DNA of 64,000 nt from a virus: positions 64,001 through 128,000 of the IMG/VR virus record IMGVR_UViG_3300034073_002585, one strand, 5' to 3'. Positions 11,943 to 39,961 of this stretch are shown here, in pieces (position 1 is the stretch's first letter; the number at the start of each line of letters is the position of its first letter). The position numbers and the translations under genes are program-made. The notes below the pieces were generated by a model. That model made no database searches. It saw only the letters and a program-made list of their open reading frames with translations, and was not told the DNA's origin.

Positions 11943-12170
11943 ATGCAAACAATTGAAGAGCTATATCACAAGGACATTCATCAGGAAAGATTTGCTATGC
12001 TTGTTGCTGCAAGGGTAAACGAAATCCTGTCTGGAACTGCCGCTGTTTTGGAATTTCCAAAGGCTGGTGGCGTGTTTAACACTCCAGAGGAAGAAGTCCT
12101 ACTATTCGCAGATGTAATCGCAAGAGTAGTCTGCGCAAACCTAAACCAAGGAGAGGAAATCGTTGAGTAA
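11943..12170 (+). CDS. Hypothetical protein
   Basis: 75-aa ORF between HTH gene and katG. Confidence 0.6.
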
Positions 12171-15400: not shown

Positions 15401-15472
15401 TCCTCTCTAGCTCAATGGCAGAGCAACGAGCTGTTAACTCGTCGGTTCGTGGTTCGAATCCACGGAGGGGAG
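15401..15472 (+). tRNA. tRNA-Asn (GTT)
   Basis: Acceptor TCCTCTC/GAGGGGA, D arm GCTCAATGGCAGAGC, anticodon arm ACGAG-CTGTTAA-CTCGT, T arm CGTGG-TTCGAAT-CCACG; CCA not encoded. Confidence 0.95.
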
Positions 15473-15496
15473 CAATACAGGTAGAATAGAACTCCT

Positions 15497-16924: not shown

Positions 16925-17286
16925 TGGCAAAGATACTTGTGGATAGGTTTCCCTGTAACCTGGTGGCCGTGCCTTCAGGATTTACAGATGACATGACTAC
17001 TCTATGTAGTCAGCCTCCCACCCAAAAAGCAAACTACTTAGACGTTACGAGGGTGATTGTTACTGATGAGCACATATTGGTCGCTAAAGACAGCCCCCAG
17101 GGGCCGCAAATCGTATTTCGAGAGACATATGAAACGTTCGTGGGCTCTCAAGACGCTGGTGAAGACTCTTATGTCACCACTTCGTCGGGAAAAATGCTAG
17201 CCTTCAGGAAAGATAGAGGCTGCGGATGTGGTTCTAGGCTTAGAGGCTGGAATCCGTACAACACAATAAACTCAATTAAAGACTAA
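16924..17286 (+). CDS. Hypothetical protein
   Basis: 120 aa with C-terminal GCGCGSRLR motif. Confidence 0.7.
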   Translation: MAKILVDRFPCNLVAVPSGFTDDMTTLCSQPPTQKANYLDVTRVIVTDEHILVAKDSPQGPQIVFRETYETFVGSQDAGEDSYVTTSSGKMLAFRKDRGCGCGSRLRGWNPYNTINSIKD

Positions 17287-18269
17287 TGATTAGCCAAGAC
17301 ACAATTTTTGTTAGTGTCCCTGCTTTCAACGAGGTCGATAGAGTTGTGCAGACAATAACTAATGCCATAGAGATGGCTGATAGCCCAGAAAATTTATTTT
17401 TTGGTGTAGTACTGCATGAATCAGTCGAGATGTCTGAAATACCTGAACTGCCTCAAACTAAAATCATCAGAGTACTCTTCCCCTCTGGACTCGGAAGTGG
17501 CCTGACGAGGCTAATGACGCACACTATGTATAACAAACAAAAGTATTTCTTAGCTGTGGATTGTCACACGCTATTTGCTCGTTCCTGGGATAAAAAATTA
17601 GTATCTCAGTACGAAGAAATTAGACAAAACGAGAGCCTAGAGAAAGCTGTGATAACACATCCAGGAATAGTCTGGTGGCAAGAATCAGACGGAACTGTCG
17701 TTAACTATCCGATTAACGGGGAACCTGACCCAAAGATGCTTCATGGGGCTCCACAAATCTATAAAATCGATAAAAAGTATGTCCGTAAAGATTTCCCAGA
17801 GACTGACGGAGATTACACATTAAGAATTAATCACGACTACTCGAAAAAATATACTGAAAACCTTACGATGTCTTGGAATTTCTGCTTCGGGATGCCTGAA
17901 TTTTTTATGTATGACATTCCTGTTCAGCCATACTCCTACTACAAAGGTGACCAGGAGCTAGTTGCATTAAGAGCGTGGACTAGAGGGTATAAATTCTATT
18001 CAATTAATACTCCGATAGTCTGGTCTTTAGATAAAGGGAAAGACAAACTGCTTTCGCGGTACGATAGACACACTGAAGTAGAATCTACACCAAGCGAATA
18101 TTTAGATTTAAAAAGAAACAATAGCTGGCTAGGCATAGAAGAAGGTTTAAAGTATTTCTGGGGCGACAAATTCGGGTTTTATGGCGCTCCTGACAAAGAA
18201 TCTTGGGAAAACTACATGAATAGGCTAGGATATCTAGAACTAATTAATCAGAAGAAAGTAGAAGACTAA
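17286..18269 (+). CDS. GT-A glycosyltransferase (GlcNAc-transferase-like)
   Basis: TIFVSVPAFNE, YFLAVDCHTLFARSWD, LRAWTRGY; AT-rich. Confidence 0.8.
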   Translation: MISQDTIFVSVPAFNEVDRVVQTITNAIEMADSPENLFFGVVLHESVEMSEIPELPQTKIIRVLFPSGLGSGLTRLMTHTMYNKQKYFLAVDCHTLFARSWDKKLVSQYEEIRQNESLEKAVITHPGIVWWQESDGTVVNYPINGEPDPKMLHGAPQIYKIDKKYVRKDFPETDGDYTLRINHDYSKKYTENLTMSWNFCFGMPEFFMYDIPVQPYSYYKGDQELVALRAWTRGYKFYSINTPIVWSLDKGKDKLLSRYDRHTEVESTPSEYLDLKRNNSWLGIEEGLKYFWGDKFGFYGAPDKESWENYMNRLGYLELINQKKVED

Positions 18270-18583: not shown

Positions 18584-20326
18584 TTGGCAATTTTTAAGAA
18601 AGATAACGCGAACAAGGGCAATGCCCGTCAAAATGTACGCGCTGCTGCTCCGAAGAACGCTACTCGTGTTGCTCCAGGTGTTTCTATCGATTCTTTTGGT
18701 GTTGTTTACGCAGAACCACAGGTATTTAACACACCTAGACCACTTACAGCTGCAGCTGCTCAGGTAAACCTACAAGACAAAGGTGAAGCAGAGCTATTTA
18801 AAGCTCGTCGCCAGTCCGCCTCTACCTCTTGGCAAAGCGAAGCCTGGGAGTACTACGACTCCATTGGCGAAATCAAGTACGCATTTAACTTAGTTGCGTC
18901 TGTTGTATCTCGTATTCGCCTCTATGCAGCTGCAATCAACAACCCAAATGAAGCTCCATCCCCCATCGACAGCGTGGAGCAGGTAGACCCTAGACTTTCA
19001 GCTGCAGCTCAGAGGGCACTTGACCGTCTAAGCTCTGCATTTGGGGGACAGGCGGGTCTTTTGAAGGATGCAGCCCTAAACCTTCAGGTTACAGGTGAGT
19101 GTTACCTGGTTCAGGTTCCAGAGCGAGTTGGCTCTGGACTACCAGAATCCTGGGACATCCGCTCTGTAGACGAACTTCAAGTTGACGCTAAGGGCAACTA
19201 CATCATTAATCCCCGCCGTGAGATTGGCGGTGGTACTGCATCTTTTATGTCTCAGGGCAATAAAGAAGCGATTGCACTACCTAGAAGCGCATTTGTTGGT
19301 CGTATCTGGCGCTCACACCCTCGCTACACCCAAGAAGCTGATTCTTCTATACGAGGACTTTTGGACCTCTGCGCTGAACTACTCTTGCTCAACCGCACAT
19401 TCCGTGCCACCGCACGCTCGCGTCTCAACGCTGGTGCCTTATACCTACCTGACGGTCTGTCGGTTGCAGCAAGTCCTGACCCTGACTATCCTTATGATGA
19501 AGACGGGGAATACAACGAGCAGTTCAACCCAGACGAAGCAGCAGACGAGTTTGAAGACCAGCTCATTGATGCAATGACCACCCCAATTAAGGACGAGGAC
19601 TCTGCTTCCGCAGTTGTTCCTCTAATTATTCGTGGTCCTGCTGAACTTGGTGACAAGATTAAGCAGTTCAAGTTCGAGCGTTCATTCGACCCAGCTCTTG
19701 CTCAGCGTGCAGACCGTGTACTAGAGCGTATCATGCAGGGCCTAGACGTCCCTAAGGACGTTGTGACGGGTCTAGCCAACGTTAAGTACTCTAACGCTCT
19801 TCAGATTGATGAAGCCCTCTACAAGGCCCACATCGAGCCTCTGATGCTACTTATCGTTGACGCACTGACTGTCATGTACTTGCGTCCATATCTAGTTGCC
19901 AACGGCTACCCCGCTGAAGAAGTAAAGAACGTCTGCATTTGGTATGACCCAAGCCTAGTTGCAACCCGCAATGACCGCGCTGCAGACGCAGACATGGGCT
20001 TCGACAAGATGGCTGTATCTTACGATGCGTGGCGTCGCGCTCATGGATTCTCCGAAGCAGATGCACCAGACCCTAAAGAATTTGCTCTTAGGTTAGTTCT
20101 AAGCAAGGGAATGGTAACGCCTGAATTGACTGAAGCTATGCTACAAGCAGTAGCGCCAGAAATCATGGGCCAAATCAGAAAACAAGCAATGGAGCAGAGC
20201 GGAGCTGGCATTCCACCAGAGGTAGACCAGCTGCTACAAAATGAAGCTCCCGTTGCCGAGCCAGAAGAACAGCCTGAAGGTGGAGACACCGATTCAGCTC
20301 CACCACTAGCGGAACCAGAGGCATAA
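18584..20326 (+). CDS. Portal protein
   Basis: WQSEAWEYYDSIGEIKYA, RIWRSHPR, VVPLIIRGP; 580 aa; position after terL. Confidence 0.85.
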   Translation: MAIFKKDNANKGNARQNVRAAAPKNATRVAPGVSIDSFGVVYAEPQVFNTPRPLTAAAAQVNLQDKGEAELFKARRQSASTSWQSEAWEYYDSIGEIKYAFNLVASVVSRIRLYAAAINNPNEAPSPIDSVEQVDPRLSAAAQRALDRLSSAFGGQAGLLKDAALNLQVTGECYLVQVPERVGSGLPESWDIRSVDELQVDAKGNYIINPRREIGGGTASFMSQGNKEAIALPRSAFVGRIWRSHPRYTQEADSSIRGLLDLCAELLLLNRTFRATARSRLNAGALYLPDGLSVAASPDPDYPYDEDGEYNEQFNPDEAADEFEDQLIDAMTTPIKDEDSASAVVPLIIRGPAELGDKIKQFKFERSFDPALAQRADRVLERIMQGLDVPKDVVTGLANVKYSNALQIDEALYKAHIEPLMLLIVDALTVMYLRPYLVANGYPAEEVKNVCIWYDPSLVATRNDRAADADMGFDKMAVSYDAWRRAHGFSEADAPDPKEFALRLVLSKGMVTPELTEAMLQAVAPEIMGQIRKQAMEQSGAGIPPEVDQLLQNEAPVAEPEEQPEGGDTDSAPPLAEPEA

Positions 20327-20327
20327 C

Positions 20328-20783
20328 ATGCACCACCCAAACCCTGAAGTTGCTAAAAAGCTTGCAGTTCTACTTTCTGATGTAGTTACTGCAAAGTTTG
20401 TATTGCACGGCTACCATTGGAACGCCCTAGGACCAGACTTTGGAGAGATGCATGACTTCTTCTCCATGCTGTACGAAGATGTTGCAGATTCTATTGACCC
20501 GCTGGCAGAGAACATTCTTAAGGTTGGCTTCCCTGCTCCTTACCTTCTAGCAGATTACGTTGAGATGTCCTGCATCAAGGAAGAGCGTCAGGACGGGACG
20601 TCCACCAAGTTCATGCTCGACTCGGCACTACGAGTTATGGAGCACCTATATGACTGCCACACCGAAGCCCTGCATCTTGCAGAGTCCTGTGACCTTCAAG
20701 GTCTTATGGATTTCCTAGCTGGACGTATTGACATGTACGCGAAGTGGAAGTGGCAGATTAAGGCCTACCTAGGAGTTCGTTAA
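20328..20783 (+). CDS. dps: Dps / ferritin-like protein
   Basis: HGYHWNALGPDFGEMHDFF..LYE....IDPLAE..., K.KWQI signature. Confidence 0.88.
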   Translation: MHHPNPEVAKKLAVLLSDVVTAKFVLHGYHWNALGPDFGEMHDFFSMLYEDVADSIDPLAENILKVGFPAPYLLADYVEMSCIKEERQDGTSTKFMLDSALRVMEHLYDCHTEALHLAESCDLQGLMDFLAGRIDMYAKWKWQIKAYLGVR

Positions 20784-21575
20784 ATGTCATACCTTGAGAA
20801 CGTTCTTAGAGCTACTGGAGGGCATGCCGCTCCAGAAGAAGTTGTTTATCTTGAGGAAGAGCAAGAAAAAGAAGAAGAGAATCTTTCTTCATACGTAGAC
20901 TCTGTTGTTGCAACTGCTGGCTCTAAGCCAGCACCTAAGAAGGACCAAATTAAGGGTTCGAGCAAGAACGCAAAGGGCTCTGCTTCAGGTGGAAAGACTA
21001 TTACTTTCAGTAAAAATGTAGAGAATTCTTTAAAAGAAAAAGTAGAGTCTCACAACAAAAAGTATGGCGACAATGCTTCTAAAAAGACATCTTTGAAGAC
21101 CCTCAAGGCTGTTTATCGTAGAGGTGCGGGGGCATTCTCCACTTCTCATCGTCCAGACCAGAATCGTAACTCATGGGCGATGGCTCGTGTAAATGCTTTT
21201 CTTCACCTTCTAAGAACTGGAAGCCCGAAAAATAGTAAGTACACAACGGACAATGACCTGCTACCAGCAACCCACCCTAAGTCTTCTAAAAAGAACGCAT
21301 CTTCTTTGACCGCAGCTGCTATGGTGGTGGCTGATACCGTATCTCAGTCTTCCGTTGTAGAACTTTTTAGCTACGAAGATTACGAATCAGACGAGCACGC
21401 AATCTTTTCTTTAGCCGAATACTCTGACTTAGGGTACGAGGCCATCCCTAGCATTAAGGCATCTTGGATTAGGGCACTAGAAGCTGGTGAAGATGCATTC
21501 TCTAGAGCGGCAGATTTGGCCATCAATCTGTATGATAGTAGAGACGCCGACCTACTACCTAAAAAGGAAGCATAA
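20784..21575 (+). CDS. Putative head-associated protein
   Basis: LKAVYRRGAGAFSTSHRP..WAMARVNAFL domain; head operon position. Confidence 0.6.
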   Translation: MSYLENVLRATGGHAAPEEVVYLEEEQEKEEENLSSYVDSVVATAGSKPAPKKDQIKGSSKNAKGSASGGKTITFSKNVENSLKEKVESHNKKYGDNASKKTSLKTLKAVYRRGAGAFSTSHRPDQNRNSWAMARVNAFLHLLRTGSPKNSKYTTDNDLLPATHPKSSKKNASSLTAAAMVVADTVSQSSVVELFSYEDYESDEHAIFSLAEYSDLGYEAIPSIKASWIRALEAGEDAFSRAADLAINLYDSRDADLLPKKEA

Positions 21576-22136: not shown

Positions 22137-24992
22137 ATGACTGAAAACCTAGCCCTACTTTCGGATGGCAATTCTTCTGCTGCTCGACGTGCTCGTGTAA
22201 AGCTTCAGCCCCGCGATAAGAAAGGTCGCTGGATTCCTACTGGCGCTTCCTTGTTCGCTATGATTCGCGGCCTCGGCGGCGAGGTAAAGAAGTATCTACT
22301 TAAAGCTATTGGTGGAACTGCAACTAAGAAGGGTGAAAAGAATTACATTAGAGCACTCCTTACTGAGGATGCTCCAGAGCTAGGTCTAAAGAAAAATACC
22401 GTCCTTGAGATTGACCCTAAAAACGGTGAACTAGACACGGGGGTTAAACTAAGTAAAGACTTCCTTCGTAGAAAAGGCATTGACCCAGACCTACAGCACA
22501 CACTACCAAAATCTTTGGCAGAGCAGCCACAGGACGTAAAAGACTTAAACCCACAAGCGGCTGATGACCTAGACATAGAGCTAGCTAATGGAGAGCTTAC
22601 TGACGAAGAAGACAAAGATTTCCGTGCAGAGCGTGATGCAGAGCCACTAGCAAAACTTCCTCCAGGAATGGAGGAGCTAGACCAGAAAGAGGTTGACGCT
22701 CTTCTTGATGGCACCACCGAAGAAGCTCCTAGCCCTTCTGCTGACACTAAAAAATCTCCTTCAGACATGACTATGGATGAACTAAAGAGGGAAATTGAAA
22801 CTCCTGTTGACCCAGCATCTCCAGGGACTTTCGAGCGCTACAACGAAGTTGCTACCGAATTTTATAAGAGAGGCGGATACTCTGTATCGCCTGGACCATC
22901 TGATAGGGCAGTGGATGAAGCTCTAGCTGAAGCTTTCTACAATGGTGAAGTTCCAAATATTGACCAGCTGGTTGATAAGGCTAAGGCTCCTGCCCCTAAG
23001 TCTACTCCTGTAACGGTAGCTAACCTAAAGCCTGGAGATATCGTAAAGGTTAAAGGCGCGGAATATCCTGTTGTGTCCACTAAGCAGCGTAATAGTGGTG
23101 GCTGGGATGTTTTCGTTGACGATAACGGAAGAAATGCCAATATCGCTGCTCTAAAAGATTCAAACGGAAATCCTCTATTCCCAAGCGGTATCCCTGGGAC
23201 CGCTACTCTAGAGAAGACTGGAACTGTCAGTAAGCCAAAGGCTCCTGACGCTACCCCCGACGTAACCCCTGACGCTACCCCGTCGGCTCCAACTAAGAAG
23301 AAAGTCTCTCCTCCTAAGCCAAAGCCTACAAAGAAGCCTCCTAAAGCTTCTACCCCGAAGAAACCGCCTGTTATTCCTCAGGGGCGCGAGGATGATGGAG
23401 AAGATATTTCTCCAAACATCAAACCTCTAGAAGACATGCAAAATGTTAAGGTTGCCAATCTAATTGACCCTAACACTGGAAAGCCAGTTAAGGGGGACAA
23501 TGGAAAGCCTATTGAAGACCCTAATGCTATTTACAATGCCCTACTAGAGCAGAACCCTCAAGCAAAGGTCAGCAAGAGCGGGCACATAATTTTAGAGCGT
23601 CAAGACTTTACTGACAATGACGGTAGGGTTTGGAAGTATGAAGTTGCAGTAGCAAGAACCCATGGAAATAAGTACATGGAGAGGTATACCTTCACCGACG
23701 ATAAAGGTGAAAGCAAGACTTTCTACCACTACGACTACAAAGACTCCTTTGCTGCTATTTATGGCGACAAGAATGGTGTTTATGTTTTCCGTGACCAACT
23801 ACTTGGTAGGGCTATTCCTGGAAAGCAGCCACCTACTAGAAATACTCTGAACTACTTTGGAGAAAAGAAGACACTAAACGACAGAATTAGGTTCTTCAGG
23901 GGGATGACAAAAGAGGGCTTCAAGCCTACCCCCGACGACTTGGCAACAAAGAGTTCGTTTAAACTACTTACTCCCGAAGAAGTAGTATCTAAGTGGCTAA
24001 ACGGGCGCGCCGAGAAATATAACAAGTCTGGCCAAGCTAGGGGTACGGTTCTACAGAACTTTGTTGGCTCAGCATGGGAAGCCATCGAAGCAGATGACCT
24101 TCCTACGTTTGAAGCTAGAATCCAGCAACTACTGGGACGCCTACCAGACGATGAGTCTTCTCGTGAACTTTTGATGAAGGCTCTTCGTGACGGTATCAAA
24201 GAAAAATTCAATGGAACTCCTTTGGGTAGAAAAGTTGCTCCTCTGGCAAACAACCTTGAGAAGAAAATTCTTACCGAAGGCCTCGACATTAGAGACCTAC
24301 AGCGCCGACCATTCTCCGCAAAAGATGGCAAGACTATCGTGGAAAAGGGAAATAAGGTTCGCTACTGGAACAACGTCGGCGAGTGGTCTATTGGTGAAGT
24401 CCTTGCTCAGTTGCCACCAAGAACTAGCACTGGAGGCAAGAATACCTACGATGACGTAGTGGCAGTAAGATTCGGTGATGGAAGCATCCACCTACTGCGT
24501 TCAAACAGAATGGATGTACTTGGTGATGAGCTTGATTTTGACCTGAATCTCCACGACAAAGACTCTGATGCCACAGATTTCAAGCCAAACCTAAAGGGAC
24601 AAGCACTTAGAGATGCCAGAGGTTATGGTTTTGATTTTGGCGAAGAGGAGCGTAGGGACGACGACAATGCAGATGCAGACACAGACGATGTCGTTAACAC
24701 CGCAGACACGGACGCGGCTGCTCCTTACCTAGGCTCAGACGGAGTCGATGCCGACGAACCAGCTGCTGACGATACTGAGGATGCAACTGCCCCAGAAGGA
24801 AACATTGCTGGCTTCGAGGCAGGAGACGTCTGGCCAGACGAGAACGGTGACCGTATGGGAACCTTCGTTGAAGCACAGAAGGTGTCAGACCCAGAGACTG
24901 GTGCCGAAGCATGGGCGGTTATTTGGTTGGACGATGATGGCGACGAGCAATTAGAGATTATTCCTCTAGATTCGAGCCGCGTCCCAAAATAG
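22137..24992 (+). CDS. Large putative virion/ejection protein with N-terminal QPRDxxGRW motif
   Basis: 951 aa with P/K-rich and acidic linkers; ends at slippery C CCA AAA TAG. Confidence 0.75.
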   Translation: MTENLALLSDGNSSAARRARVKLQPRDKKGRWIPTGASLFAMIRGLGGEVKKYLLKAIGGTATKKGEKNYIRALLTEDAPELGLKKNTVLEIDPKNGELDTGVKLSKDFLRRKGIDPDLQHTLPKSLAEQPQDVKDLNPQAADDLDIELANGELTDEEDKDFRAERDAEPLAKLPPGMEELDQKEVDALLDGTTEEAPSPSADTKKSPSDMTMDELKREIETPVDPASPGTFERYNEVATEFYKRGGYSVSPGPSDRAVDEALAEAFYNGEVPNIDQLVDKAKAPAPKSTPVTVANLKPGDIVKVKGAEYPVVSTKQRNSGGWDVFVDDNGRNANIAALKDSNGNPLFPSGIPGTATLEKTGTVSKPKAPDATPDVTPDATPSAPTKKKVSPPKPKPTKKPPKASTPKKPPVIPQGREDDGEDISPNIKPLEDMQNVKVANLIDPNTGKPVKGDNGKPIEDPNAIYNALLEQNPQAKVSKSGHIILERQDFTDNDGRVWKYEVAVARTHGNKYMERYTFTDDKGESKTFYHYDYKDSFAAIYGDKNGVYVFRDQLLGRAIPGKQPPTRNTLNYFGEKKTLNDRIRFFRGMTKEGFKPTPDDLATKSSFKLLTPEEVVSKWLNGRAEKYNKSGQARGTVLQNFVGSAWEAIEADDLPTFEARIQQLLGRLPDDESSRELLMKALRDGIKEKFNGTPLGRKVAPLANNLEKKILTEGLDIRDLQRRPFSAKDGKTIVEKGNKVRYWNNVGEWSIGEVLAQLPPRTSTGGKNTYDDVVAVRFGDGSIHLLRSNRMDVLGDELDFDLNLHDKDSDATDFKPNLKGQALRDARGYGFDFGEEERRDDDNADADTDDVVNTADTDAAAPYLGSDGVDADEPAADDTEDATAPEGNIAGFEAGDVWPDENGDRMGTFVEAQKVSDPETGAEAWAVIWLDDDGDEQLEIIPLDSSRVPK

Positions 24993-25012
24993 ATAGGGCT
25001 GCTTCTGGCCCT
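24983..25012 (+). other. Predicted programmed -1 ribosomal frameshift site
   Basis: X XXY YYZ heptamer CCCAAAA directly before TAG; hairpin AGGGCT-GCTTCT-GGCCCT 5 nt downstream; -1 frame open 24938-27154. Confidence 0.75.
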
Positions 25013-27154
25013 TCTGACGAGGGTTCGGATTCAGCCCCTAAGCCAAAAGTAGCTAAAAGCTTAGCTGGTAATAACTTTGACCTATCGAAGGTTCGCACCC
25101 TAAATAAGTCAGCTAAGCCTGGTCCAGGTAGACCCAGAACTCGTCCGATTGACCCCAATTGGAATGACCTTAAGGCTATAGAGAGTGAAATTTTCGCTAC
25201 TATACCTGCAGACGTAGACCTAGACGAGTTAAACGATAAAATTTCAGCTGTTCGAGAGGCCAGGGCCTCTGACGATGCTAAGCAATATGCAGCCGCATTG
25301 AGAGATTTAATTGTTTTCCACCAAGACAGTTTTAAAGCTGACGAGTCCTACTCCCCTAGAGACCTAGATGCTGCTGTAAAAGCTGACGAACTGCTTTCCT
25401 CTGACCCTAGGGCCATAGCTGTAGTTAGAGGTGTCTTACACGTAGGAGCTAGGGACGGTAAATCGCCTAAAACCCTAACACAGCTGCTGGATGACGCTAA
25501 GCAGAATTTTAAAGACAATAGAGCAGATGTTAGACCGCATCTTGCAGCTTTAGGTGGCGACTGGGAGACAAAGGGTGCCATCCAACTTGCTGATGACATG
25601 CAGGTCGAATTTGAGGCCGAGTTTATCAGGCAAGGCGCTCACCCTGGCGAAGCGGTGTTTAGGGCGAAACGTAGGGTAGCTCAAGTCTTAAATGACATGG
25701 CAACAGACCACAAGAAGTCCTACATAGTTTTGACATCTAAACAAGATAATGCATCCATAAAACTATTCATGGGCTCCAAGTCAGGAACGATGGTACCTGT
25801 AGCTGCTCCCGATGAGGTTGCCCAGATTCGTGTTGGTATAACTGCTGCAAGAGCTAACAAGTTCAATAAAGACCCTATAAATGTAAATGTTATGGCTAAT
25901 GACAGCACTTCAGCTATGCCTACAGCTGTCTCGTCTCAGCTGGATGATGGTGATTTGGCCTTCACATACTTTGGCGGGGATGGAGTATTTATCTACCCTC
26001 AAAGGGTAAGCAAGATGTTGGCAGATGGAGTCGACTCTAACTGGTTCTCTACCAATATTAAAGACTCTAAAGACCTATACAAGCACCTAATTGTTCATGA
26101 AACTGGTCACCTACAGATGTATAAACTGTGGGGACAAGGTAAAGGTTCTGGTAGAGCAGAGCTAGAGAAAGATTTCACTAACTTTAACGTTTCTAAAGAT
26201 GGAACTAGTGACTATGGTAGCGAGAGTATTTCTGAAAGTTTTGCCGAACAGTACGCTAAGTATTTGTTGACTGGAAATGCTTCGCAAGAATTTATAGACC
26301 TGCTTAGCTCTAAGGGCTTAACTAAGGCTCAGCTAAATAAAAAGTGGCGAGAAAACCACAAGAGTCTATTTAGCTCTGGATATGATATCTTCTTCAAATT
26401 CCTCGATGGTGTTATGGTTGATGACCAGCAGGGAGTTACTCCAGAGTACAATGGACCAGAAGCTAGGGAGTACTCAGATGGCGGAAAATACGGCGCTGGC
26501 ATCGTCCACAGACTCGGTCGTATATTAGGATTTACTAGCAATAAGCCTGACAAAGTTGACTCTATAAAAAATGATAAATATGTCATTTATAGGGGCCTAC
26601 AATCTGCTAACAATAGAACTCCTATTGATATGCATGCTCAGTTTATGTATGCTGATATGCCATACTATGGATACGGCATCCACGGGGATGGCCAGTACTC
26701 AAGTACTAATCGTCGTACTGCTCGCGGTTATGCAGGATATACAGACGACGGGGTAGTAAAAATGCGAGTCAAGCCCACTGCAAAAGTCTATTCAGAAGGT
26801 GGCCGAGGCTCTGACAATCTGTTTGACCCTGCTGTATCTAATGATGGTATCGATATTAGGGACGTCTACGCTAAGCTCTTTGACTCAGATGGAATTTTGG
26901 CTCAAATAGTTCTCAATGAAATTGACCCTGACTTGTCTGGATACGAGTTGCAAGCTCAAATAGACCTTCTAGCTAGAAAATTAGGAATTATTAATGGCAA
27001 CTATATGGGAAGCAAGTCTCACCTAGCTGCCCTTCTAGGCTTTCAAGGTATTGAAATAAATCAAGGTGGAGAGTCTTTTGTAGTTATACTTGATAGGAGT
27101 ATGCTAGAGATGCAAGACCCGAATGCCCAGATAACGCAAGGATTAAACTCATAA
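24989..27154 (+). CDS. Frameshift extension: zincin metallopeptidase + ADP-ribosyltransferase-like domain
   Basis: LIVHETGH...SESFAE; IYRG...GYGIHGDGQYSS...A.GYA...GFQGI..VILDR; the track start 25298 (TTG) has no SD and the frame is open about 120 codons further upstream. Confidence 0.7.
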   Translation: MDRAASGPSDEGSDSAPKPKVAKSLAGNNFDLSKVRTLNKSAKPGPGRPRTRPIDPNWNDLKAIESEIFATIPADVDLDELNDKISAVREARASDDAKQYAAALRDLIVFHQDSFKADESYSPRDLDAAVKADELLSSDPRAIAVVRGVLHVGARDGKSPKTLTQLLDDAKQNFKDNRADVRPHLAALGGDWETKGAIQLADDMQVEFEAEFIRQGAHPGEAVFRAKRRVAQVLNDMATDHKKSYIVLTSKQDNASIKLFMGSKSGTMVPVAAPDEVAQIRVGITAARANKFNKDPINVNVMANDSTSAMPTAVSSQLDDGDLAFTYFGGDGVFIYPQRVSKMLADGVDSNWFSTNIKDSKDLYKHLIVHETGHLQMYKLWGQGKGSGRAELEKDFTNFNVSKDGTSDYGSESISESFAEQYAKYLLTGNASQEFIDLLSSKGLTKAQLNKKWRENHKSLFSSGYDIFFKFLDGVMVDDQQGVTPEYNGPEAREYSDGGKYGAGIVHRLGRILGFTSNKPDKVDSIKNDKYVIYRGLQSANNRTPIDMHAQFMYADMPYYGYGIHGDGQYSSTNRRTARGYAGYTDDGVVKMRVKPTAKVYSEGGRGSDNLFDPAVSNDGIDIRDVYAKLFDSDGILAQIVLNEIDPDLSGYELQAQIDLLARKLGIINGNYMGSKSHLAALLGFQGIEINQGGESFVVILDRSMLEMQDPNAQITQGLNS

Positions 27155-27456
27155 TGGCTGATGAAGAAAACAGAGAAATGGAAGAGAGAGCCATAGAATA
27201 CTCTCGACTATTTGCTAGAGCAATGGGGCAGGCTACAGATTCTGATTATTTCAGTAGTGACGGTAAGTCATGGGATGAAGCTGCAGATTGGATAAAAGAC
27301 AATAATTATGTGCCCAAATCTCGTGAGTTCCGAAAACTAATTATCGATGAGATTTACCAGATATTAGAGACTAAACCCCTCCCACCTAAAGAGAGCTTCT
27401 CTGGGGAGCTACAAAAGTTCTTGGATAGATATGAAGAAAGGCGTAAAAATGGATAA
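27154..27456 (+). CDS. Hypothetical protein (candidate immunity)
   Basis: Coupled TAATG to the toxin-like ORF. Confidence 0.65.
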   Translation: MADEENREMEERAIEYSRLFARAMGQATDSDYFSSDGKSWDEAADWIKDNNYVPKSREFRKLIIDEIYQILETKPLPPKESFSGELQKFLDRYEERRKNG

Positions 27457-27637
27457 ACCAAAACGCGACTTCAACACCAAAGTAACTTACTACCTAGAAG
27501 ACTTTTCTGGCAAAAAAGCACCAAAAGAGGTAGTGGTTGACTTATCTGAACTACCGAACGAAGAGCTAGACCAGCTCCTATTCCACGTACCAGAGGCAAC
27601 ATCTGAAATCGTATATCGTGAATTATACGGTCAATAG
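27449..27637 (+). CDS. Hypothetical protein
   Basis: SD GAAAGG, 62 aa. Confidence 0.55.
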   Translation: MDKPKRDFNTKVTYYLEDFSGKKAPKEVVVDLSELPNEELDQLLFHVPEATSEIVYRELYGQ

Positions 27638-27714: not shown

Positions 27715-28086
27715 ATGGCAAAAAGCAGCATCGTAGATGTCTGGTTCTATGTAGACCCACAATCAGAGAGTATTGACTCGGTTGTTTGCTGGTTCCCTAT
27801 GGGCATGTCTGTCCGCGAAGGCGGAGACTGGGAAATTTCAAGCAAAGAGGAAGCTGGAATCAACGACAAGCTTTCTAAGCATGATGTCTATCAATTGGAC
27901 TGGGATACAGACCCTCTAGTAATTGATGATTCTTACGATTTCGACGACCCAGAGAACGAACACGCTGCTATAAAAATGTACGACAAGGGAGAGCTTACCT
28001 TGGAAAGTTTGATGGAGTACTCAGAAAAAATTATGAGTGCACCAGAGGACGCCTCTGAATACGACGACTTGGAAGTCGAGGACTAA
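27715..28086 (+). CDS. Acidic hypothetical protein
   Basis: 123 aa. Confidence 0.7.
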   Translation: MAKSSIVDVWFYVDPQSESIDSVVCWFPMGMSVREGGDWEISSKEEAGINDKLSKHDVYQLDWDTDPLVIDDSYDFDDPENEHAAIKMYDKGELTLESLMEYSEKIMSAPEDASEYDDLEVED

Positions 28087-28087
28087 A

Positions 28088-31000
28088 TTGCTCAAGTTTG
28101 TTGGCGCTACTGACGAACTGGCTTTTTTTGAAAAAGATGGCCAGTATGCTGCTATTTACATTGACACTAATTTAATTGCTGATTTTTCAGAGTACGAAAT
28201 AGCAGACCACCTGCAGAAGCTTCCATCTACTCCATCAACTAAGGTTTTCTCTAACTCAGCTATAGAGCTAGTATCTGCCGCACTAACCTCATTAGACCCA
28301 GTTGTAGCTTCAGGAGACAGGATGTATACAATTCCTGAGGGTGCTACTTCTGAAGCTAAAAAAGCACTAGAGTGGCGTAAAGAGCACAAGCGTGGTGGTA
28401 CCCCTGTTGGTATGAATACTGCTCGTACTCTTGCTAAAGGCGGGCAGATTGGCATCAAGAAGGTTCGCCATATCGCAAAGTATTTCCCTCGTCACGAAGT
28501 TGACAAGAAGGGCAAAGGCTGGGCACCTGGAGAAGACAACTTCCCATCAAACGGCCGCATTGCCTGGGCGCTTTGGGGCGGCGATGCTGCATGGCGCTGG
28601 GCTCGTGCAATCGTAGAGCGCGAAGATAGAAAAGCAAAGACTGCTAGTGGATATGCATTCTCCAATTATGAAGAAGATTTAGACACATACGGCTACACCG
28701 ACGGTTATGGTTCTGATTTAGATGCTTTTAAAGCAGCTCATTACATGGACGAAAACGCTGGCCCCGAATTTATGGCACGCGTCAGGACCGATGGCTCTGG
28801 AATTGACAGACTATATAAAATTGAAATAGACGGAAGTGTATTTGTCTGGGATGACTGCGGATGGGATAACCTAGGTCACGTAGATGGAGATGTTTATTTT
28901 TACGACCGAGAATTGGATGACGAGCTCGATTTAGTTGATGTAGAGCACGTAATGATTGACCCGTCGTCTGCGGTTATCGTTTCTGCATTCCTGCAAGAAC
29001 GCCCTTTCCAGCCAGTAAAACTAGATGAGATTGACCCAGAAGAGACAGCTATTATGGCTGAAGGTCTTTATGAAGAAGACTTCACCATGATTGACAGGGT
29101 AATTACTGCAGCAGGTGAAACTCCTATTAGCGGTAAGACTTCTAAGGCAGACCAGGATGGCGACGGAAAACTAGATACCCAGTTTTTGTCTGACAAGGCC
29201 AAATCACAGCCTAGAGATAAAGACGGTCTTTTTGTCAGCGTTGGCTCTCGCACTGTCGTGGGTGGAGACAAAGAGCGTGGTTCTGGAGAGATTACCCGTA
29301 TTGATTATGACCGAAATCGGGTTGTTGTTAGACTAGACAATGGTAAAACCATTTCTGTTGACCCTAAGTACACTCAGGCTGAAGACAAATTTGATGGCCC
29401 TATGCAGATGCCTAGCGCTGTCCCTCCTGTAGATTTTTCAGGAATTTTAGGAGAGCCAAGAAGTCCTAGGGGTGCTATAGCAACTCTTCCTGGAACAATG
29501 GCACCTCTAACCGCTAAAGACGTTCAACTTCTTTTAAACGACTACCCTAAATATGTCCAAAAGATGCGTGACTCCTACAAGCTCTATGAGGACAACCCTA
29601 AGGGTCTTAGGGATTATGACAAGAAGTATATGGAAAAGCGGTATGGACTTAAGGCTGCTGGAGAGAAAGAGTCTGATGCAATCAACTCTCCTAAAGAGTC
29701 TGACGTACCAGCTAAGTACCTAGCTATCGTTTCCCCAGAAGACAAGACCGCAGTTATGGACGTTGTCGCCATTGTGCCAGCGTCCAAGACATCTACCGAA
29801 CCTACTATTTACGAGCGTCGCGAAGGTAAGTGGACTAAGAATGACCAGATTCTAAATGACCTTAAGTCTTCTACCCCTCCTCCAGTAATTCCTCTAGACG
29901 AGAAGGAAGTTCTAAACGACGTCCTTAAGCAAGCAGACGAGGCTACAATGCAGGCCTCGGCTTACGACTTTAATCAGTTCTGGTACGGCGTAGTCGAGCC
30001 GCTACTAGCTAAAGGTGGAGTAGACCGTAACCGAGGAAATGCAGAAAAGCTTCGTCGTTATTGGACTCGTGGTAAGGGTGCTCTCAAGATTCGCTGGGGA
30101 ACCCCTGGCGACTGGACCCGTTGTGTCCGACTACTGTCTAAGTACATGGGCCCACGTGCAAAGGGCTACTGCCAGCTTCGCCACAAGGAAGTTACTGGTG
30201 TCTACACTGGTAGCAAATACAACGTAGGCAAGAAGAGAGGCCGTAAAGCTTCTGGTTACCTATTTGCAACTGAGGCAGAGTTTGAAAAAGCAATGATTTC
30301 TAAGTCAGAACTTATTGCTAAGGCTCAGGATGCTAGAGAAAAAATTAGCTTAATTGCGTCGGCTGCTGGTCAAGGCTCTAAGTTCTTAATTCCTATGCTT
30401 GTACCAGAAGAAGTGGAATCTGGAGACGGACGCAAGTTTAAGTCTGGTGCAATTAGTGTTCGCGATTTACCAGTTCCTCTACTATGGCAGATTAAAACTG
30501 GTGCAGGCCACGACGGCTCTGTTGTAGTTGGTCGCATTGACTACATCGAGCGCGTTGAGGGTGGTATGGGTAATGCATACGGTGTCTTTGACAACGGACC
30601 ATATGGCCGTGAAGCAGAGCGTCTAGTTCGTCATGGCTTCCTACGCGGCGTTTCTGTAGACCTCGACCAGTTCGAGGCAAAAGAGGAAAAGAAGCCAAAA
30701 GAAGAAATGTCCGAGGAAGATGGCGATTCGATTGGTAAGGATAAACTTACCATAAATAAGGCCAGAATAATGGCTGCTACAATTGTAGCTAAGCCAGCAT
30801 TCCAAGAATGCTCTATTGAATTGCAAAACGAGGGGGACCAGGAGGAAACCGTGACCCCAGAAGACGGCGTTTACGAGGAGTCGATGGAAGACTTCGCTGA
30901 CCTCGAACCTATCGCAGCCTCTGGCTTCTTGAAGCAGGAAGTCCCAATGACTCCTCCTTCAGATTGGTTCAAGCACCCAGGCCTGACTAAGCCAACCCCG

Positions 31001-32698
31001 CTCACTGTGGACGAGAATGGTCGTATTTACGGCCACATTGCAGCATGGAATGTAAACCACATCGGTTTGCCTCGTGCAACCAAGCCGCCACGTTCTCGCA
31101 GCAAGTACGCCTACTTCCACACTGGTGTTCTCCGTTGCGACGACGGTACTGATGTTCCAGTTGGTCAGCTAACTCTTGCTGGAGGACACGCTCCTCTAAA
31201 TGCAGATGCAGCTTCGGCCGCTAAGCACTACGATGACACCGCTTCCGCTGTTGCAGATATTCACTGTGGTGAAGACGAGTACGGTATATGGTGTGCAGGT
31301 TCAATCCGCCCTGGGCTAGATGAAATGCAGATTCGCGCACTTCGTGCTTCTGCTCCTTCTGGAGACTGGCGACCTATTAACGGCTCACTCGAGCTTGTTG
31401 CTATCTGCCAGGTTAACGTTCCTGGATTCCCGACTGCTCGTGCAATGATTGCATCTGGCAAGGTTTTGGCTCTGGTTGCTGCTGGAGCAAGCTACATGGC
31501 CGCTATGAAGTGTTCTGGGGCTGCATGCTCTCTCAACACCAAGGCAGAACTGCTAGGACAGCTTGCCGCAAGTGCACCAGACCTAAAGGGCCGTGTCAGG
31601 GAAGCAAAGAAGGCGCTACGTGCTGCCAACTTGCAGGCTATAACTGCAAGTGCAGCAGAGTTCCGCGAGAAGGCTCTAGTTGCAGCTGCTGTAGCTGAGC
31701 TTGCCAAGATTTCTGAAGATGAGCGCATGGAGCTTGCCAAAGAAGGTAAGGCAATGCCAGATGGGGCTTACCCAATTCGTAATGTGGAAGACCTTAAGAA
31801 TGCTATTCAGGCTTATGGTCGCGCAAAGGCTTCAGAGCGACGTGCAGTTCGCAAGCACATTATGAATCAGGCTCGTAAGCTCAAGCAATGGGCTTTAGTG
31901 CCAGAGCACTGGAAGAATGCTGATTCTATGGAAGCAGCTCAGCGGGTTGCATCCATGCGTGCAGCAATTACTGCCGCCGCTAACAAAGACTGCGGCTGCG
32001 AGTTGGATGGAAAGTCGGTGGTGGCTGCTGGCCCAAAAGACGAGGAGATTTCTGATTCAGACCTAAAAAAATTGCGTGACGCTAAAGAAGAAGCTGACAA
32101 GCAAACTGAAGAAGAAATCGCTGAAGCCGAAAAAGTTAAAGCTGGAAAGACTAGCGTAGAAGACAAGTATGACGACGAAGGTCGTCAGAAATACGTTTCT
32201 GGCGTAAACCAGCCTCGTGACGCTAAAGGTAAGTATCGCACCGTGTTGGCTCGCCTAAAGCAGAACCTCGGGGTAGCTGGTTTAGCAAAAGCCCTTAAAA
32301 AGGCTGAAGATGCAGAAAATCTTGACTTTGCTGGTGACTACAGCGCTTCAGCTGCGGCTAGCTCAGAGCTGTTAGGCATGATTGACAGACTCGACAGTGG
32401 AGCACTAAATGCAGAAGCACTGGAAAATGTTAAGGGAACTGCAGCTGAATTAGGTAAGGTAATTTCAAATCTGCCTCTACCATTCGGTGAAGAAGCCCAA
32501 AAAGTTAGATTTAGCGATTTGCCAGCGGGATTGAAGGACCTCATTGAGGGAATGATTGACCGCGTTGAAAGCAAAATCGGTAAAAAGGACGCAGATATTG
32601 CTACGCAAAACCTGAAGTCCTACATGTCAGGAGCAGATGTTTACTCTCAGGGAGAGGTTCAATCTGAGATGAGCAAGCTACTCCGACTACTTACCTAA
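28088..32698 (+). CDS. Multidomain head protein containing capsid maturation protease
   Basis: ESGDGRKF..LPVPLLWQ..GHDGSVVVGRI..LRGVSVDLD (HK97-type prohead protease); second domain GRIYGHIA..SGDWR..VNVPGFP; start uncertain (28037 or TTG 28088). Confidence 0.8.
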   Translation: MLKFVGATDELAFFEKDGQYAAIYIDTNLIADFSEYEIADHLQKLPSTPSTKVFSNSAIELVSAALTSLDPVVASGDRMYTIPEGATSEAKKALEWRKEHKRGGTPVGMNTARTLAKGGQIGIKKVRHIAKYFPRHEVDKKGKGWAPGEDNFPSNGRIAWALWGGDAAWRWARAIVEREDRKAKTASGYAFSNYEEDLDTYGYTDGYGSDLDAFKAAHYMDENAGPEFMARVRTDGSGIDRLYKIEIDGSVFVWDDCGWDNLGHVDGDVYFYDRELDDELDLVDVEHVMIDPSSAVIVSAFLQERPFQPVKLDEIDPEETAIMAEGLYEEDFTMIDRVITAAGETPISGKTSKADQDGDGKLDTQFLSDKAKSQPRDKDGLFVSVGSRTVVGGDKERGSGEITRIDYDRNRVVVRLDNGKTISVDPKYTQAEDKFDGPMQMPSAVPPVDFSGILGEPRSPRGAIATLPGTMAPLTAKDVQLLLNDYPKYVQKMRDSYKLYEDNPKGLRDYDKKYMEKRYGLKAAGEKESDAINSPKESDVPAKYLAIVSPEDKTAVMDVVAIVPASKTSTEPTIYERREGKWTKNDQILNDLKSSTPPPVIPLDEKEVLNDVLKQADEATMQASAYDFNQFWYGVVEPLLAKGGVDRNRGNAEKLRRYWTRGKGALKIRWGTPGDWTRCVRLLSKYMGPRAKGYCQLRHKEVTGVYTGSKYNVGKKRGRKASGYLFATEAEFEKAMISKSELIAKAQDAREKISLIASAAGQGSKFLIPMLVPEEVESGDGRKFKSGAISVRDLPVPLLWQIKTGAGHDGSVVVGRIDYIERVEGGMGNAYGVFDNGPYGREAERLVRHGFLRGVSVDLDQFEAKEEKKPKEEMSEEDGDSIGKDKLTINKARIMAATIVAKPAFQECSIELQNEGDQEETVTPEDGVYEESMEDFADLEPIAASGFLKQEVPMTPPSDWFKHPGLTKPTPLTVDENGRIYGHIAAWNVNHIGLPRATKPPRSRSKYAYFHTGVLRCDDGTDVPVGQLTLAGGHAPLNADAASAAKHYDDTASAVADIHCGEDEYGIWCAGSIRPGLDEMQIRALRASAPSGDWRPINGSLELVAICQVNVPGFPTARAMIASGKVLALVAAGASYMAAMKCSGAACSLNTKAELLGQLAASAPDLKGRVREAKKALRAANLQAITASAAEFREKALVAAAVAELAKISEDERMELAKEGKAMPDGAYPIRNVEDLKNAIQAYGRAKASERRAVRKHIMNQARKLKQWALVPEHWKNADSMEAAQRVASMRAAITAAANKDCGCELDGKSVVAAGPKDEEISDSDLKKLRDAKEEADKQTEEEIAEAEKVKAGKTSVEDKYDDEGRQKYVSGVNQPRDAKGKYRTVLARLKQNLGVAGLAKALKKAEDAENLDFAGDYSASAAASSELLGMIDRLDSGALNAEALENVKGTAAELGKVISNLPLPFGEEAQKVRFSDLPAGLKDLIEGMIDRVESKIGKKDADIATQNLKSYMSGADVYSQGEVQSEMSKLLRLLT

Positions 32699-39628: not shown

Positions 39629-39961
39629 ATGGCAAAGTTTAAGGACTTTGGAGCCCCTACCGTAGAAGGTGGAGAGCCAATTTCATTCAAGCTTTTTGAT
39701 GAAGAGTTCCACTGTGTTCCAGCTCTTCCAGGAAAAGTAATTCTTGGGATTGTTGCAAAGTCTAGCTCCAACAACCCTAGTGACCAGGCAGCCATCATTG
39801 ATGACTTTTTTTCTAAGGCACTAGTTAATGAGAGCCTAGAAAGATTTAATGCTCTGATTGAAGATAAAGATAAAGCTATCTCGGCAGAGACATTGGGAGA
39901 GATTACTGGATGGTTAGTAGAGCAGTACGCTGACCGCCCAAATCCGCAGCCAGAGGTCTAG
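39629..39961 (+). CDS. Tail assembly chaperone (G)
   Basis: Position before tape measure; WLVEQYADRP end with slippery CCCAAAT. Confidence 0.8.
   Translation: MAKFKDFGAPTVEGGEPISFKLFDEEFHCVPALPGKVILGIVAKSSSNNPSDQAAIIDDFFSKALVNESLERFNALIEDKDKAISAETLGEITGWLVEQYADRPNPQPEV

Follow-up and report, generated by a model that had tools for sequence, protein, structure and literature searches.

In tailed phages, programmed frameshifting is textbook knowledge where it produces tail chaperones or adds short decorations to capsid or tail proteins. The structural proteins among these are exemplified by the head and tail proteins of phage A2 and the capsid proteins 10A/10B of phages T3 and T7, where ribosomes slip back one base near the 3′ end of the gene and a longer minor isoform is produced (PMC5009743). 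The extensions acquired in A2 and T3/T7 are short, and most of them are Ig-like decorations of a major capsid or tail protein. For enzymatic cargo encoded by head genes the situation is different: frameshifting is mentioned nowhere (0 mentions) in the papers on polyvalent proteins (PMC5512222) and on MuF polymorphic toxins (PMC5576092), and in the PRFect paper MuF-like and VIP2-ART gene pairs are listed merely among unverified predictions (PMC10885494). In the literature searched, we found no description of large enzymatic effector modules that are appended by a phage frameshift.

The locus described here differs from the A2 and T3/T7 cases in that 721 residues with two enzyme-type domains would be added to a protein that is not a capsid protein. 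On the basis of sequence comparisons we consider it quite probable that a conserved programmed -1 ribosomal frameshift joins this 721-residue module, as putative cargo, to some copies of a 951-aa carrier protein. The window, i.e. the whole stretch of 64,000 nucleotides that was analysed, belongs to a 154-kb uncultured phage of freshwater actinobacteria. All features discussed below are on its + strand.

Reading frames, slippery site and stem-loop

The carrier gene (22137..24992, 0 frame) is located between the portal gene (18584-20326) and the genes for the prohead-protease protein and the major capsid protein. It encodes 951 amino acids and its final codons are GTC CCA AAA TAG. In the -1 frame, a stop at 24935-24937 precedes an open stretch that begins at 24938 and ends with the TAA at 27152-27154. 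The extension (24989..27154) would start with AUA at 24989 and comprise 721 new residues, so that the predicted fusion has a length of 951 + 721 = 1,672 aa. The earliest ATG, GTG or TTG codon in the extension frame is a TTG at 25298 (codon 105) and the earliest ATG is found at 25598 (codon 205); both lack the purine-rich Shine-Dalgarno sequence that genuine genes of the head module possess. The initial annotation is accurate in these respects: it had reported a 951-aa ORF ending on an in-phase CCCAAAA (24983-24989), a -1 frame that is stop-free over 24938-27154 without a Shine-Dalgarno-led start, and a fusion of about 1,670 aa. The predicted junction sequence is ..SSRVPK/IDRAASGPS.., for which the junction-spanning Glu-C peptide would be IIPLDSSRVPKIDRAASGPSDE; trypsin would split the junction into VPK and IDR. 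The extension is followed by an ORF of 100 aa (27154..27456) of which the ATG overlaps the extension TAA (TAATG). This ORF is syntenic in the relatives, gave no family match in Pfam or PHROGs, and is possibly a coupled partner of the extension.

The slippery heptamer C CCA AAA (24983..24989) is of the X XXY YYZ type and in phase, with its first C at a third codon position, and it is directly abutted by the 0-frame stop TAG (24990..24992). Lactobacillus phage A2 reportedly uses C CCA AAA as its frameshift heptamer too. The CCCAAAN sequences on the + strand of the window (n = 23) were scanned for phase, length of the -1 frame and downstream fold. At only two of them, 24983 and 39937, is the phase right close to where a long ORF ends, the -1 frame long (723 and 123 codons, respectively) and the fold strong (-24.9 and -23.3 kcal/mol, respectively, with the other sites at -2 to -20 kcal/mol). 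The occurrence of CCCAAAA at 24983 exceeds chance. The second site, also noticed in the initial annotation as a CCCAAAT at the tail chaperone shift, indeed lies in the tail-chaperone gene of the same genome, where C CCA AAU (39937-39943) is in phase and separated from its -23.3 kcal/mol hairpin by a 5-nt spacer. In principle a nearly identical fusion could arise by transcriptional slippage, if RNA polymerase were to add or drop an A in the short A4 run and thereby produce a minority of in-frame fused mRNAs. However, four A's are far below the homopolymer lengths known to support transcriptional slippage (see PMC5009743). Moreover, what characterises ribosomal slippage, and not polymerase slippage, is present here: a conserved CCC, an exact codon phase and a spaced hairpin. 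This origin of the fusion is very improbable.

The signal is conserved. At least 17 related contigs, obtained from IMG/VR, ENA, JGI and one NCBI MAG and representing at least 14 distinct signal sequences, possess the invariant CCCAAAA with TAG or TAA right behind it and a -1 frame that is open for 704-1,004 codons; the check whether homologues keep the heptamer and the stop thus had a positive outcome. Identities to these relatives are 35-79% for the carrier and 32-67% for the extension. Across the relatives the codon before CCA is GTC, CTC, GGC, TCC or AGC, encoding V, L, G or S, and the first six codons of the -1 frame are codon-invariant, whereas invariant amino acids elsewhere are encoded by 2-5 codons each. 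Because the codon before CCA is constantly NNC despite the changing amino acid, and the first six -1 codons are fixed, selection acts at the nucleotide level. Two adjacent frames would look the same if an indel had been introduced by sequencing or assembly or if a gene had been broken recently, and this bare look is the one thing in favour of such an origin. Against it, the arrangement recurs in 17 independently assembled contigs from various samples and databases with 32-79% protein identity. The sequencing indel that the initial annotation wished to see checked is excluded by these independent assemblies, and the probability of an artefact or a broken gene is negligible.

Protein conservation in the extension begins at its first residue, i.e. 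at the shift site, and includes residues 1-105, which have no start codon. Differences in this start-less part at codon positions 1/2/3 amount to 9/2/32 between the window and L010 and to 3/1/34 between L001 and L005. Judged from this dominance of third-position substitutions, the start-less "gap" of 305 nt is under purifying selection as a -1 frame coding sequence, in agreement with the coding nature that had been considered probable for it. Gene callers treat the extension differently: in each of the 24 database homologues it is called as a gene of its own, and homologues are annotated as proteins of 582-739 aa. This is what would be expected of an independent gene with an internal or non-canonical start, next to which the heptamer would be incidental. 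However, the called starts vary between homologues and have no Shine-Dalgarno sequence, an independent start being conserved in none of them. Moreover, protein conservation and purifying selection reach upstream past all called starts up to the heptamer, and heptamer and stop are nucleotide-invariant despite a protein divergence of about 50%. An independent gene is therefore highly improbable.

An in-frame fusion of carrier and extension was not found in a profile search against 1.84 billion representatives, in which no family-level match exceeded about 1,010 aa. Longer, in-frame fused forms of the extension were also absent from a search restricted to longer proteins, which is weak evidence. 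In the distant lineage L007/L019, one ORF encodes in frame a HExxH tail of a different kind (HELWH in L007). The check for homologues that are in-frame fusions therefore gave a divided answer: none joins these two parts, but L007/L019 has an in-frame ORF with another tail. Since that tail is encoded in frame, a frameshift is not obligatory for proteins of this kind. Comparison of the zincin profile of the extension (see below) with the in-frame tail of L007 gave an hhalign probability of 0.7%, i.e. no detectable relationship, so the HELWH tail resembles the zincin at the motif level only.

Downstream of the heptamer, with a distance of 6 nt, an interrupted stem-loop of 42 nt and about 16 bp (24996..25037) is present with a basal stem GGGCUG/CAGCCC. 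It is the thermodynamically preferred structure (dG -24.9 kcal/mol, z -2.5). A corresponding hairpin (-22 to -27.5 kcal/mol) is present in all 14 distinct homologous sequences; the upper stems are unrelated. The spacer in the homologues is 6 nt; in one fold the base extends to 3 nt. Covariation supports the structure: in 11 sequences 97.5% of the cells are paired and four pairs show compensatory changes; the covariation score was reached by 0 of 500 shuffles, and sliding of the partners decreased pairing to 27-56%. The initial annotation was right about the presence of a downstream hairpin, but the 6-bp AGGGCT/GGCCCT helix that it placed 5 nt downstream, although it can be drawn, is not conserved; the conserved structure is the 42-nt stem-loop. 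An upstream SD-like GGGG was also considered as a stimulator and was dropped, as it occurs in some homologues and is absent from the window's own clade.

The position of the stem-loop also bears on reinitiation, in which ribosomes that have terminated at the TAG would start again, with no AUG, at a -1 codon close by, for example the AUA at 24989, giving a separate enzyme of about 720 aa. The stop abuts the start of the conserved -1 coding region and the surrounding codons are invariant, as would also be required by any coupled-translation signal. However, AUG, GUG and UUG are out of reach in every homologue, and reinitiation would not explain why the codon before CCA invariably ends in C. Initiation would be hindered by a stable hairpin located 6 nt past the point of restart, whereas for frameshifting such a hairpin is the classical stimulator, and the heptamer-spacer-hairpin design is matched at the tail-chaperone frameshift site. 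We consider reinitiation improbable and interpret the locus below as a site of programmed -1 frameshifting.

Carrier protein and domains of the extension

The carrier is a chain of small domains, with a model confidence (pLDDT) of 66.6. It is composed of SH3/KOW/Tudor-like barrels, a conserved core (residues 464-715), and Pro/Ala-rich and acidic linkers. No family match was obtained in Pfam, PHROGs or the PDB; low-complexity linkers were the only matches in the PDB profile search, and a protein-atlas search gave no usable match. Fold searches retrieved helical bundles and small barrels of a generic kind (EF-P domain I/KOW-like, Z 8.1; Tudor-like, Z about 7), without a functional lead. Classification of the carrier as a minor head protein of the MuF/SPP1 gp7 type was rejected, as Phage_Mu_F was detected neither in the carrier nor in 11 homologues at E-values up to 1; MuF domains were confined to some of the remote homologues that the ART-like domain has. 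A GLSSG cleavage tag was looked for and is absent from the carrier, the extension and the neighbouring 1,553-aa protein.

The N-terminal module of the carrier (residues 6-113, 22152..22475) is shared with giant single-ORF actinophage proteins that are encoded at the same position of the head module. Profile comparison gave an hhalign probability of 97.7% (E 1.7e-12) with gp68 of Microbacterium phage Cece and of 91.5% (E 8.6e-7) with a 3,289-aa protein of the Actinomycetia phage DSL-LC01. When the 120-aa N-terminal piece was used in a tblastn search of a cultured-phage collection, 7 Microbacterium phage records were matched; DNA and protein searches of that collection with the whole carrier and extension gave no match. 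Like the carrier, Cece gp68 (1,654 aa) and the DSL-LC01 protein are encoded with the portal on one side and the capsid maturation protease on the other, and they possess the homologous N-terminal module of about 100 aa. Unlike the window locus, each is a single uninterrupted ORF, of which the remainder is unrelated and without a detected zincin or ART domain; the zincin profile against Cece gp68 gave an hhalign probability of 0.1%, which indicates no detectable relationship.

Direct searches of the extension in Pfam and PHROGs yielded nothing usable. Its first 51 residues (24983..25135) are predicted to form a disordered linker (pLDDT < 50) that carries a conserved GPGRPRTxPIDPxW motif, and a helical region connects this linker to the zincin domain. 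The latter (extension residues 163-451, 25469..26335) was assigned by profile and fold to the lethal factor (LF)/Pro-Pro-endopeptidase (PPEP, M34-like) type. Structural alignment with VIA-align to LF chain 1yqy_A gave a Z score of 11.2 and an rmsd of 6.7 over 200 residues. The Z scores with LF chains range from 11.0 to 11.4 (about 190-200 residues aligned), and those with PPEP-1, PPEP-2 and PPEP-3 are 9.0-9.5, 8.6 and 9.0, respectively. Foldseek E-values by themselves are weak (0.1-1), and the sequence profile matches LF with E-values of 7e-5 to 3e-3.

Two motifs of the zincin are invariant. The HETGH sequence (26096..26110) corresponds to HExxH (H372, E373, H376) and is the same in 23 sequences. 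The S-x-Y-G...E-x-F-A-E motif (S409, Y411, G412, E418 and E422; 26207..26248) consists of invariant columns and aligns residue by residue with the LF segment that contains the Tyr and the third zinc-ligand Glu. From what is known of LF, we take H372, E373, H376, Y411 and E418 to be the metal-ligand and catalytic residues. The LF catalytic domain and PPEP-1/2/3 (MEROPS M34) thus share the fold, the HExxH and the SxYG...ExFAE motif with the extension, whereas sequence identity is just 8-14% and the window zincin is located in a phage head module. Pfam ATLF had no match above the gathering score for the window protein and gave weak matches in 10 of 19 remote relatives (best E 0.0019). Because ATLF remains below the Pfam threshold, the zincin is a distant relative of this fold and not a member of the Pfam family.

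The C-terminal domain (26420..27151) is distantly similar to ADP-ribosyltransferases (ART) of the ART-PolyVal/PARP-DT clade, as indicated by remote homologues and BFVD matches. Residues R537, Y572, E646, E691 and R705 are invariant. The domain itself has no direct Pfam match; it finds remote homologues with E-values of 1e-8 to 1e-23, of which 9 of 37 match Pfam ART-PolyVal (best E 4e-6) and 5 of 37 match PARP. PDB profile matches are ARTs throughout, but weak (E 0.0057-2), with 7rb4_A (labelled diphtheria toxin C domain) at E 0.0057 and tankyrase/PARP1 matches at E 0.1-2 on the GxGxY...A..Y segment. In BFVD, a 'PolyVal ADP-Ribosyltransferase' and a second phage protein annotated as ART-PolyVal-like were matched with a probability of 0.99 but an E-value of about 0.01. 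For the window protein, the ART assignment is transitive and weak, pointing to a putative distant relationship. E697, which corresponds in position to the catalytic Glu of PARP, is not constant among the family members (S in L003, T in L006). In view of this variable residue and the missing Pfam match, the ART-like domain may be non-canonical or inactive. Of the zincin and ART-like domains that had been claimed initially, the zincin holds by profile and fold, and the ART-like part is distant with weak direct matches.

Proposed mechanism and relation to known systems

In the proposed mechanism, ribosomes translating the carrier mRNA would arrive at C CCA AAA, tRNA-Pro occupying the P site and tRNA-Lys the A site, and the 42-nt stem-loop would hold them at the heptamer just before the 0-frame stop. 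Most ribosomes would terminate there and release the 951-aa protein. A fraction would slip back one base, to CCC AAA, read AUA GAU AGG and onward, and produce the 1,672-aa fusion. The fusion would thereby obtain the flexible linker, the helical region, a zinc metallopeptidase domain of the LF/PPEP type with intact catalytic motifs, and the distant ART-PolyVal-like domain. By analogy, we assume that the two products are made in a fixed ratio with the fusion as the minor isoform.

The cargo role is suggested by analogies to polyvalent proteins, MuF-effector proteins and T4 Alt. The carrier may be built into or under the capsid via its conserved N-terminal module; because it belongs to no recognisable virion-protein family, it is the gene position only that points to incorporation in the virion. 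The frameshift would then fix the number of enzyme-bearing copies in each virion at a low level, and after ejection the enzyme domains might attack targets in the host; alternatively, they might process the cargo. A fuller version of this scheme is tentative and we lean slightly towards doubting it: the locus might be a Gag-Pol-like dosing device in which the N-terminal module is the capsid-incorporation signal of giant cargo proteins in large actinophages, the frameshift rather than a plain fusion sets how many copies carry the LF-type protease and the ART-like warhead in this lineage, and the protease frees the warhead or attacks host proteins after ejection.

Similar to this locus, tail chaperone frameshifts of the G/GT type use a conserved heptamer with an RNA structure and give two products in a set ratio. 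They occur in a different gene, the extension is only about 120 aa, and what is made is an assembly chaperone, not enzymatic cargo. Conversely, the polyvalent proteins of phages and conjugative elements (PMC5512222) and the MuF polymorphic toxins (PMC5576092) resemble the window protein in content, with an LF-unified zincin, an ART domain, a portal/terminase neighbourhood and predicted co-delivery with DNA. With its zincin and ART-like domains the extension possesses, as polyvalent proteins do, at least two effector-type domains in a head-gene neighbourhood. However, the described proteins are single in-frame polypeptides, whereas the window protein forms a single polypeptide that includes the carrier only if the frameshift occurs, and no MuF domain was detected in the window carrier.

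If the fusion is made, its extension would be among the longest frameshift-encoded extensions in any bacterial virus, and automatic annotation would split such proteins into a 'hypothetical protein' and a start-less orphan. The site is compact (about 55 nt) and conserved with natural compensatory variants, and could serve as a ready reporter cassette for frameshifting in actinobacteria. The arrangement is reminiscent of Gag-Pol of retroviruses and totiviruses, where a particle-associated protein sometimes runs on into enzyme domains so that few enzyme copies are carried. The proteins are unrelated, those viruses infect eukaryotes, and capsid incorporation of the window protein is something we only infer. 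If the fusion is made, polyvalent or effector cargo of phages can be dosed at the level of translation, comparable to retroviral Pol.

Probable frameshift site and its homologues

The head-module ORF at 22137-24992 encodes a protein of 951 amino acids, here called the carrier, and terminates with GTC CCA AAA TAG, which places the heptamer CCCAAAA (24983-24989) in X XXY YYZ phase. The initial annotation had proposed a -1 frameshift at this position, and all sequence elements on which it relied are present in the window, except that its 6-bp hairpin is not the conserved element. The -1 frame contains a stop at 24935-24937 and is open thereafter as far as TAA at 27152-27154. After a slip on the heptamer the junction reads ..SSRVPK-IDRAASGPS.., giving a product of 951 + 721 = 1,672 residues, the last 721 of which are termed the extension. 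In this frame no start codon occurs before TTG at 25298 (codon 105) and no ATG before 25598; neither of the two is preceded by a Shine-Dalgarno sequence of the AGGAG/GAGGA type, which the real genes of the module do have. The 23 CCCAAAN sites on the window strand were compared by whether they lie in the correct phase close to the end of an ORF, whether the -1 frame is long and whether a strong fold immediately follows; all three apply only to the sites at 24983 and, in the tail-chaperone gene, at 39937.

Relatives of carrier and extension were gathered from four sources, covering IMG/VR (L001-L008, L025 and L030), JGI and NCBI metagenome contigs (L015-L018), and ENA, NCBI-MAG and JGI assemblies (L010-L013). 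CCCAAAA closes the carrier ORF in 17 contigs, with TAG or TAA as the very next codon and a -1 frame that runs on for 704-1,004 codons. These contigs contain at least 14 different signal sequences and share 35-79% identity in the carrier and 32-67% in the extension. The codon preceding CCA specifies Val, Leu, Gly or Ser, yet it is NNC in every case, and selection therefore acts on the nucleotide completing the heptamer and not on the amino acid. The first six -1 codons have the same nucleotides across all loci, save for one AGG to CGG replacement; invariant amino acids further into the extension are encoded by 2-5 different codons.

Alignment of the extension proteins holds from the first residues (PKIDRAA.., NFDLS, GPGRPRTxPIDPxW), far ahead of any start codon, and possible start positions vary from locus to locus. 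Over codons 20-105, differences at codon positions 1/2/3 number 9/2/32 between the window and L010 and 3/1/34 between L001 and L005. Because of this third-position excess in close pairs, the supposed 305-nt gap codes in the -1 frame, as had been suspected earlier: the start-less stretch is conserved as protein.

Among 1.84 billion representative proteins, a profile search gave no family-level match longer than ~1,010 amino acids, and no fused form came up when longer proteins alone were searched, so carrier and extension are not seen joined in frame. The exception to the frameshift arrangement is one distant lineage (L007/L029 and L019), in which the carrier itself continues in frame to 1,372 amino acids (L007:5956-10071; also L019), with neither heptamer nor -1 ORF. 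The tail in L007 is unrelated to the extension; it bears HELWH and SLYGSNERF, but its likeness to the zincin domain described below is at the motif level only (hhalign probability 0.7%). In three divergent relatives (L006:9288-12227, L008:8811-11822 and L018:6901-9913) the extension has an extra insert of ~280 amino acids that separates the HExxH helix from the SxYG..ExFAE segment; the motifs GSNPGG, DAxLANWD and DPGGSLLFRAQG are conserved in it, and it has no Pfam match. The frameshift signal is constant across cargo that differs.

Putative stimulatory RNA structure and the tail-chaperone site

Instead of the proposed 6-bp hairpin, the homologues share a larger interrupted stem-loop, located at 24996-25037 in the window. 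Its start lies 6 nt past the heptamer in 13 of the 14 distinct folds, with the base lengthened to 3 nt in that of L006; it measures 42 nt in 12 of the 14 and ~33 nt in the L013 type, with energies of -22 to -27.5 kcal/mol and z-scores of -2.5 to -4.1 among the homologues. At the base the stem GGGCUG/CAGCCC never varies; the upper stems are wholly different between clades, yet pairing is retained. When 11 sequences are aligned without gaps, 97.5% of the cells are in standard pairs and four of the five variable pairs changed on both sides; sliding the 3' partners by 1-3 columns lowers pairing to 27-56%. The covariation score was reached by none of 500 shuffles, a count that is not a probability since the sequences are related. 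Even with this kinship, the compensatory replacement of whole upper stems is hard to explain otherwise.

The tail-chaperone gene (39629-39961) carries C CCA AAU in phase at 39937-39943, and a hairpin of -23.3 kcal/mol (z -3.2) begins 5 nt downstream; the site spans 39937-39985. The -1 frame extends to 40308, just ahead of the 928-aa tape measure gene. This site is the classical, conserved tail-chaperone frameshift of phages and shows CCCAAAN-spacer-hairpin to be the design that the present phage employs. A tRNA-Asn (GTT) gene lies at 15401-15473, just before the terminase gene; a connection with AAU (Asn), the A-site codon of the tail-chaperone heptamer, is speculative.

The carrier site is best explained by a conserved programmed -1 ribosomal frameshift, which, judged by these comparisons, is quite probably the correct reading. 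Termination followed by reinitiation, an independent start for the downstream frame, slippage during transcription and an artefact were weighed as alternatives, but none accounts for the invariant phase of the heptamer, for the NNC codon or for a covarying hairpin at a set spacing.

Carrier and extension domains

Neither carrier nor extension has a direct Pfam or PHROGs match, and no recognisable family was found for the carrier. Its model (pLDDT 66.6) is a chain of small domains that includes small SH3/KOW/Tudor-like barrels and a conserved core, along with long linkers. Carrier residues 6-113 share homology with the N-terminal part of gp68 from Microbacterium phage Cece (hhalign 97.7%, E 1.7e-12), a 1,654-aa single ORF between portal and capsid maturation protease, and with residues 189-285 of a 3,289-aa protein of phage DSL-LC01 (91.5%, E 8.6e-7) at the same genome position. 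A module that is shared while the remainders vary suggests that these proteins are anchored or incorporated in a common way and carry cargo specific to each lineage.

An alignment of 23 sequences gave a confident AlphaFold2 model of the extension (mean pLDDT 81), in which residues 1-51 are disordered. Residues 163-451 form a zincin domain whose best fold match is the catalytic domain of anthrax lethal factor (LF; Z 11.2, rmsd 6.7 Å, 200 residues; LF entries Z 11.0-11.4), followed by the Pro-Pro endopeptidases PPEP-1/2/3 (Z 8.6-9.5). The sequence profile reaches LF independently of the fold (E 7e-5 to 3e-3), and that alignment covers HETGH and the S-x-Y-G...E-x-F-A-E segment, both invariant in the family. 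In LF, these motifs supply the pair of His ligands and the catalytic Glu, as well as the Tyr and the Glu that acts as third ligand, and the peptidase accordingly looks catalytically competent.

The C-terminal domain (~residues 480-723) is predicted to be a distant ADP-ribosyltransferase (ART) relative. Hundreds of proteins are found with its profile (E 1e-8 to 1e-23); among 37 remote relatives tested, nine match Pfam ART-PolyVal and five match PARP, and some carry MuF. Profile matches in the PDB are weak, the best-scoring being ARTs (a chain labelled diphtheria toxin C domain; tankyrase/PARP1), and in the viral structure library BFVD the phage proteins 'PolyVal ADP-Ribosyltransferase' and 'Lethal factor' are found at probability 0.99-1.0. 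ART activity is uncertain because the position of the usual catalytic Glu is not conserved in the family.

A 100-aa ORF (27154-27456), for which no family was found, overlaps the extension stop with its ATG (TAATG) and could encode a protein that is coupled to the enzyme module as its partner or that inhibits it. Downstream come small ORFs encoding ~62-68 aa (at 27431-27637 in the window) and ~123 aa, a synteny retained in L010-L013.

Genome setting and related systems

The parent IMG/VR record measures 154,192 bp and has direct terminal repeats; bases 64001-128000 were analyzed. The locus is surrounded by a head-tail module comprising the large terminase (15497-16924), the portal (18584-20326), a 1,553-aa protein (28037-32698) and the major capsid protein (32817-34997). 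The 1,553-aa protein has a Peptidase_S78-like prohead serine protease segment at residues 824-931, matches PHROG families annotated as head maturation protease/portal, and is a giant protease fusion like Cece gp70 (1,548 aa). A GlcNAc-transferase-like protein (17286-18269; Pfam GlcNAc, E 7.9e-21) is encoded between terminase and portal, and the portal gene is directly followed by genes for a Ferritin-like (Dps-type) protein of 151 aa (20328-20783; Pfam Ferritin, E 1.1e-9) and a DUF5824 protein (20784-21575). Just upstream of the terminase, a 729-aa haem peroxidase of the catalase-peroxidase type (12163-14352; Pfam peroxidase, E 1.7e-66) is encoded, an auxiliary function that is unusual in phages.

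The capsid protein shares 70% identity with that of DSL-LC01, a metagenome-assembled Actinomycetia phage from Dishui Lake, and 55-57% with those of Microbacterium phages of 186-195 kb. Since, in addition, a freshwater Actinomycetota MAG includes one homologous contig, the host is very probably a freshwater actinobacterium.

The extension-bearing carrier would plausibly be a capsid-carried, translationally dosed effector. Polyvalent proteins have as their signature a zincin unified with LF together with an ART, encoded among head genes (Iyer et al., PMC5512222); the extension likewise combines an LF-type zincin with an ART-like domain at such a position, and it also resembles MuF toxins (PMC5576092). 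Neither paper mentions frameshifting, and the PRFect paper (PMC10885494) lists MuF-like/VIP2-ART pairs only as unverified predictions. Compared with these systems, the novelty would be the extension of a head-module protein by effector cargo of a familiar kind through a recoding mechanism that is itself familiar.
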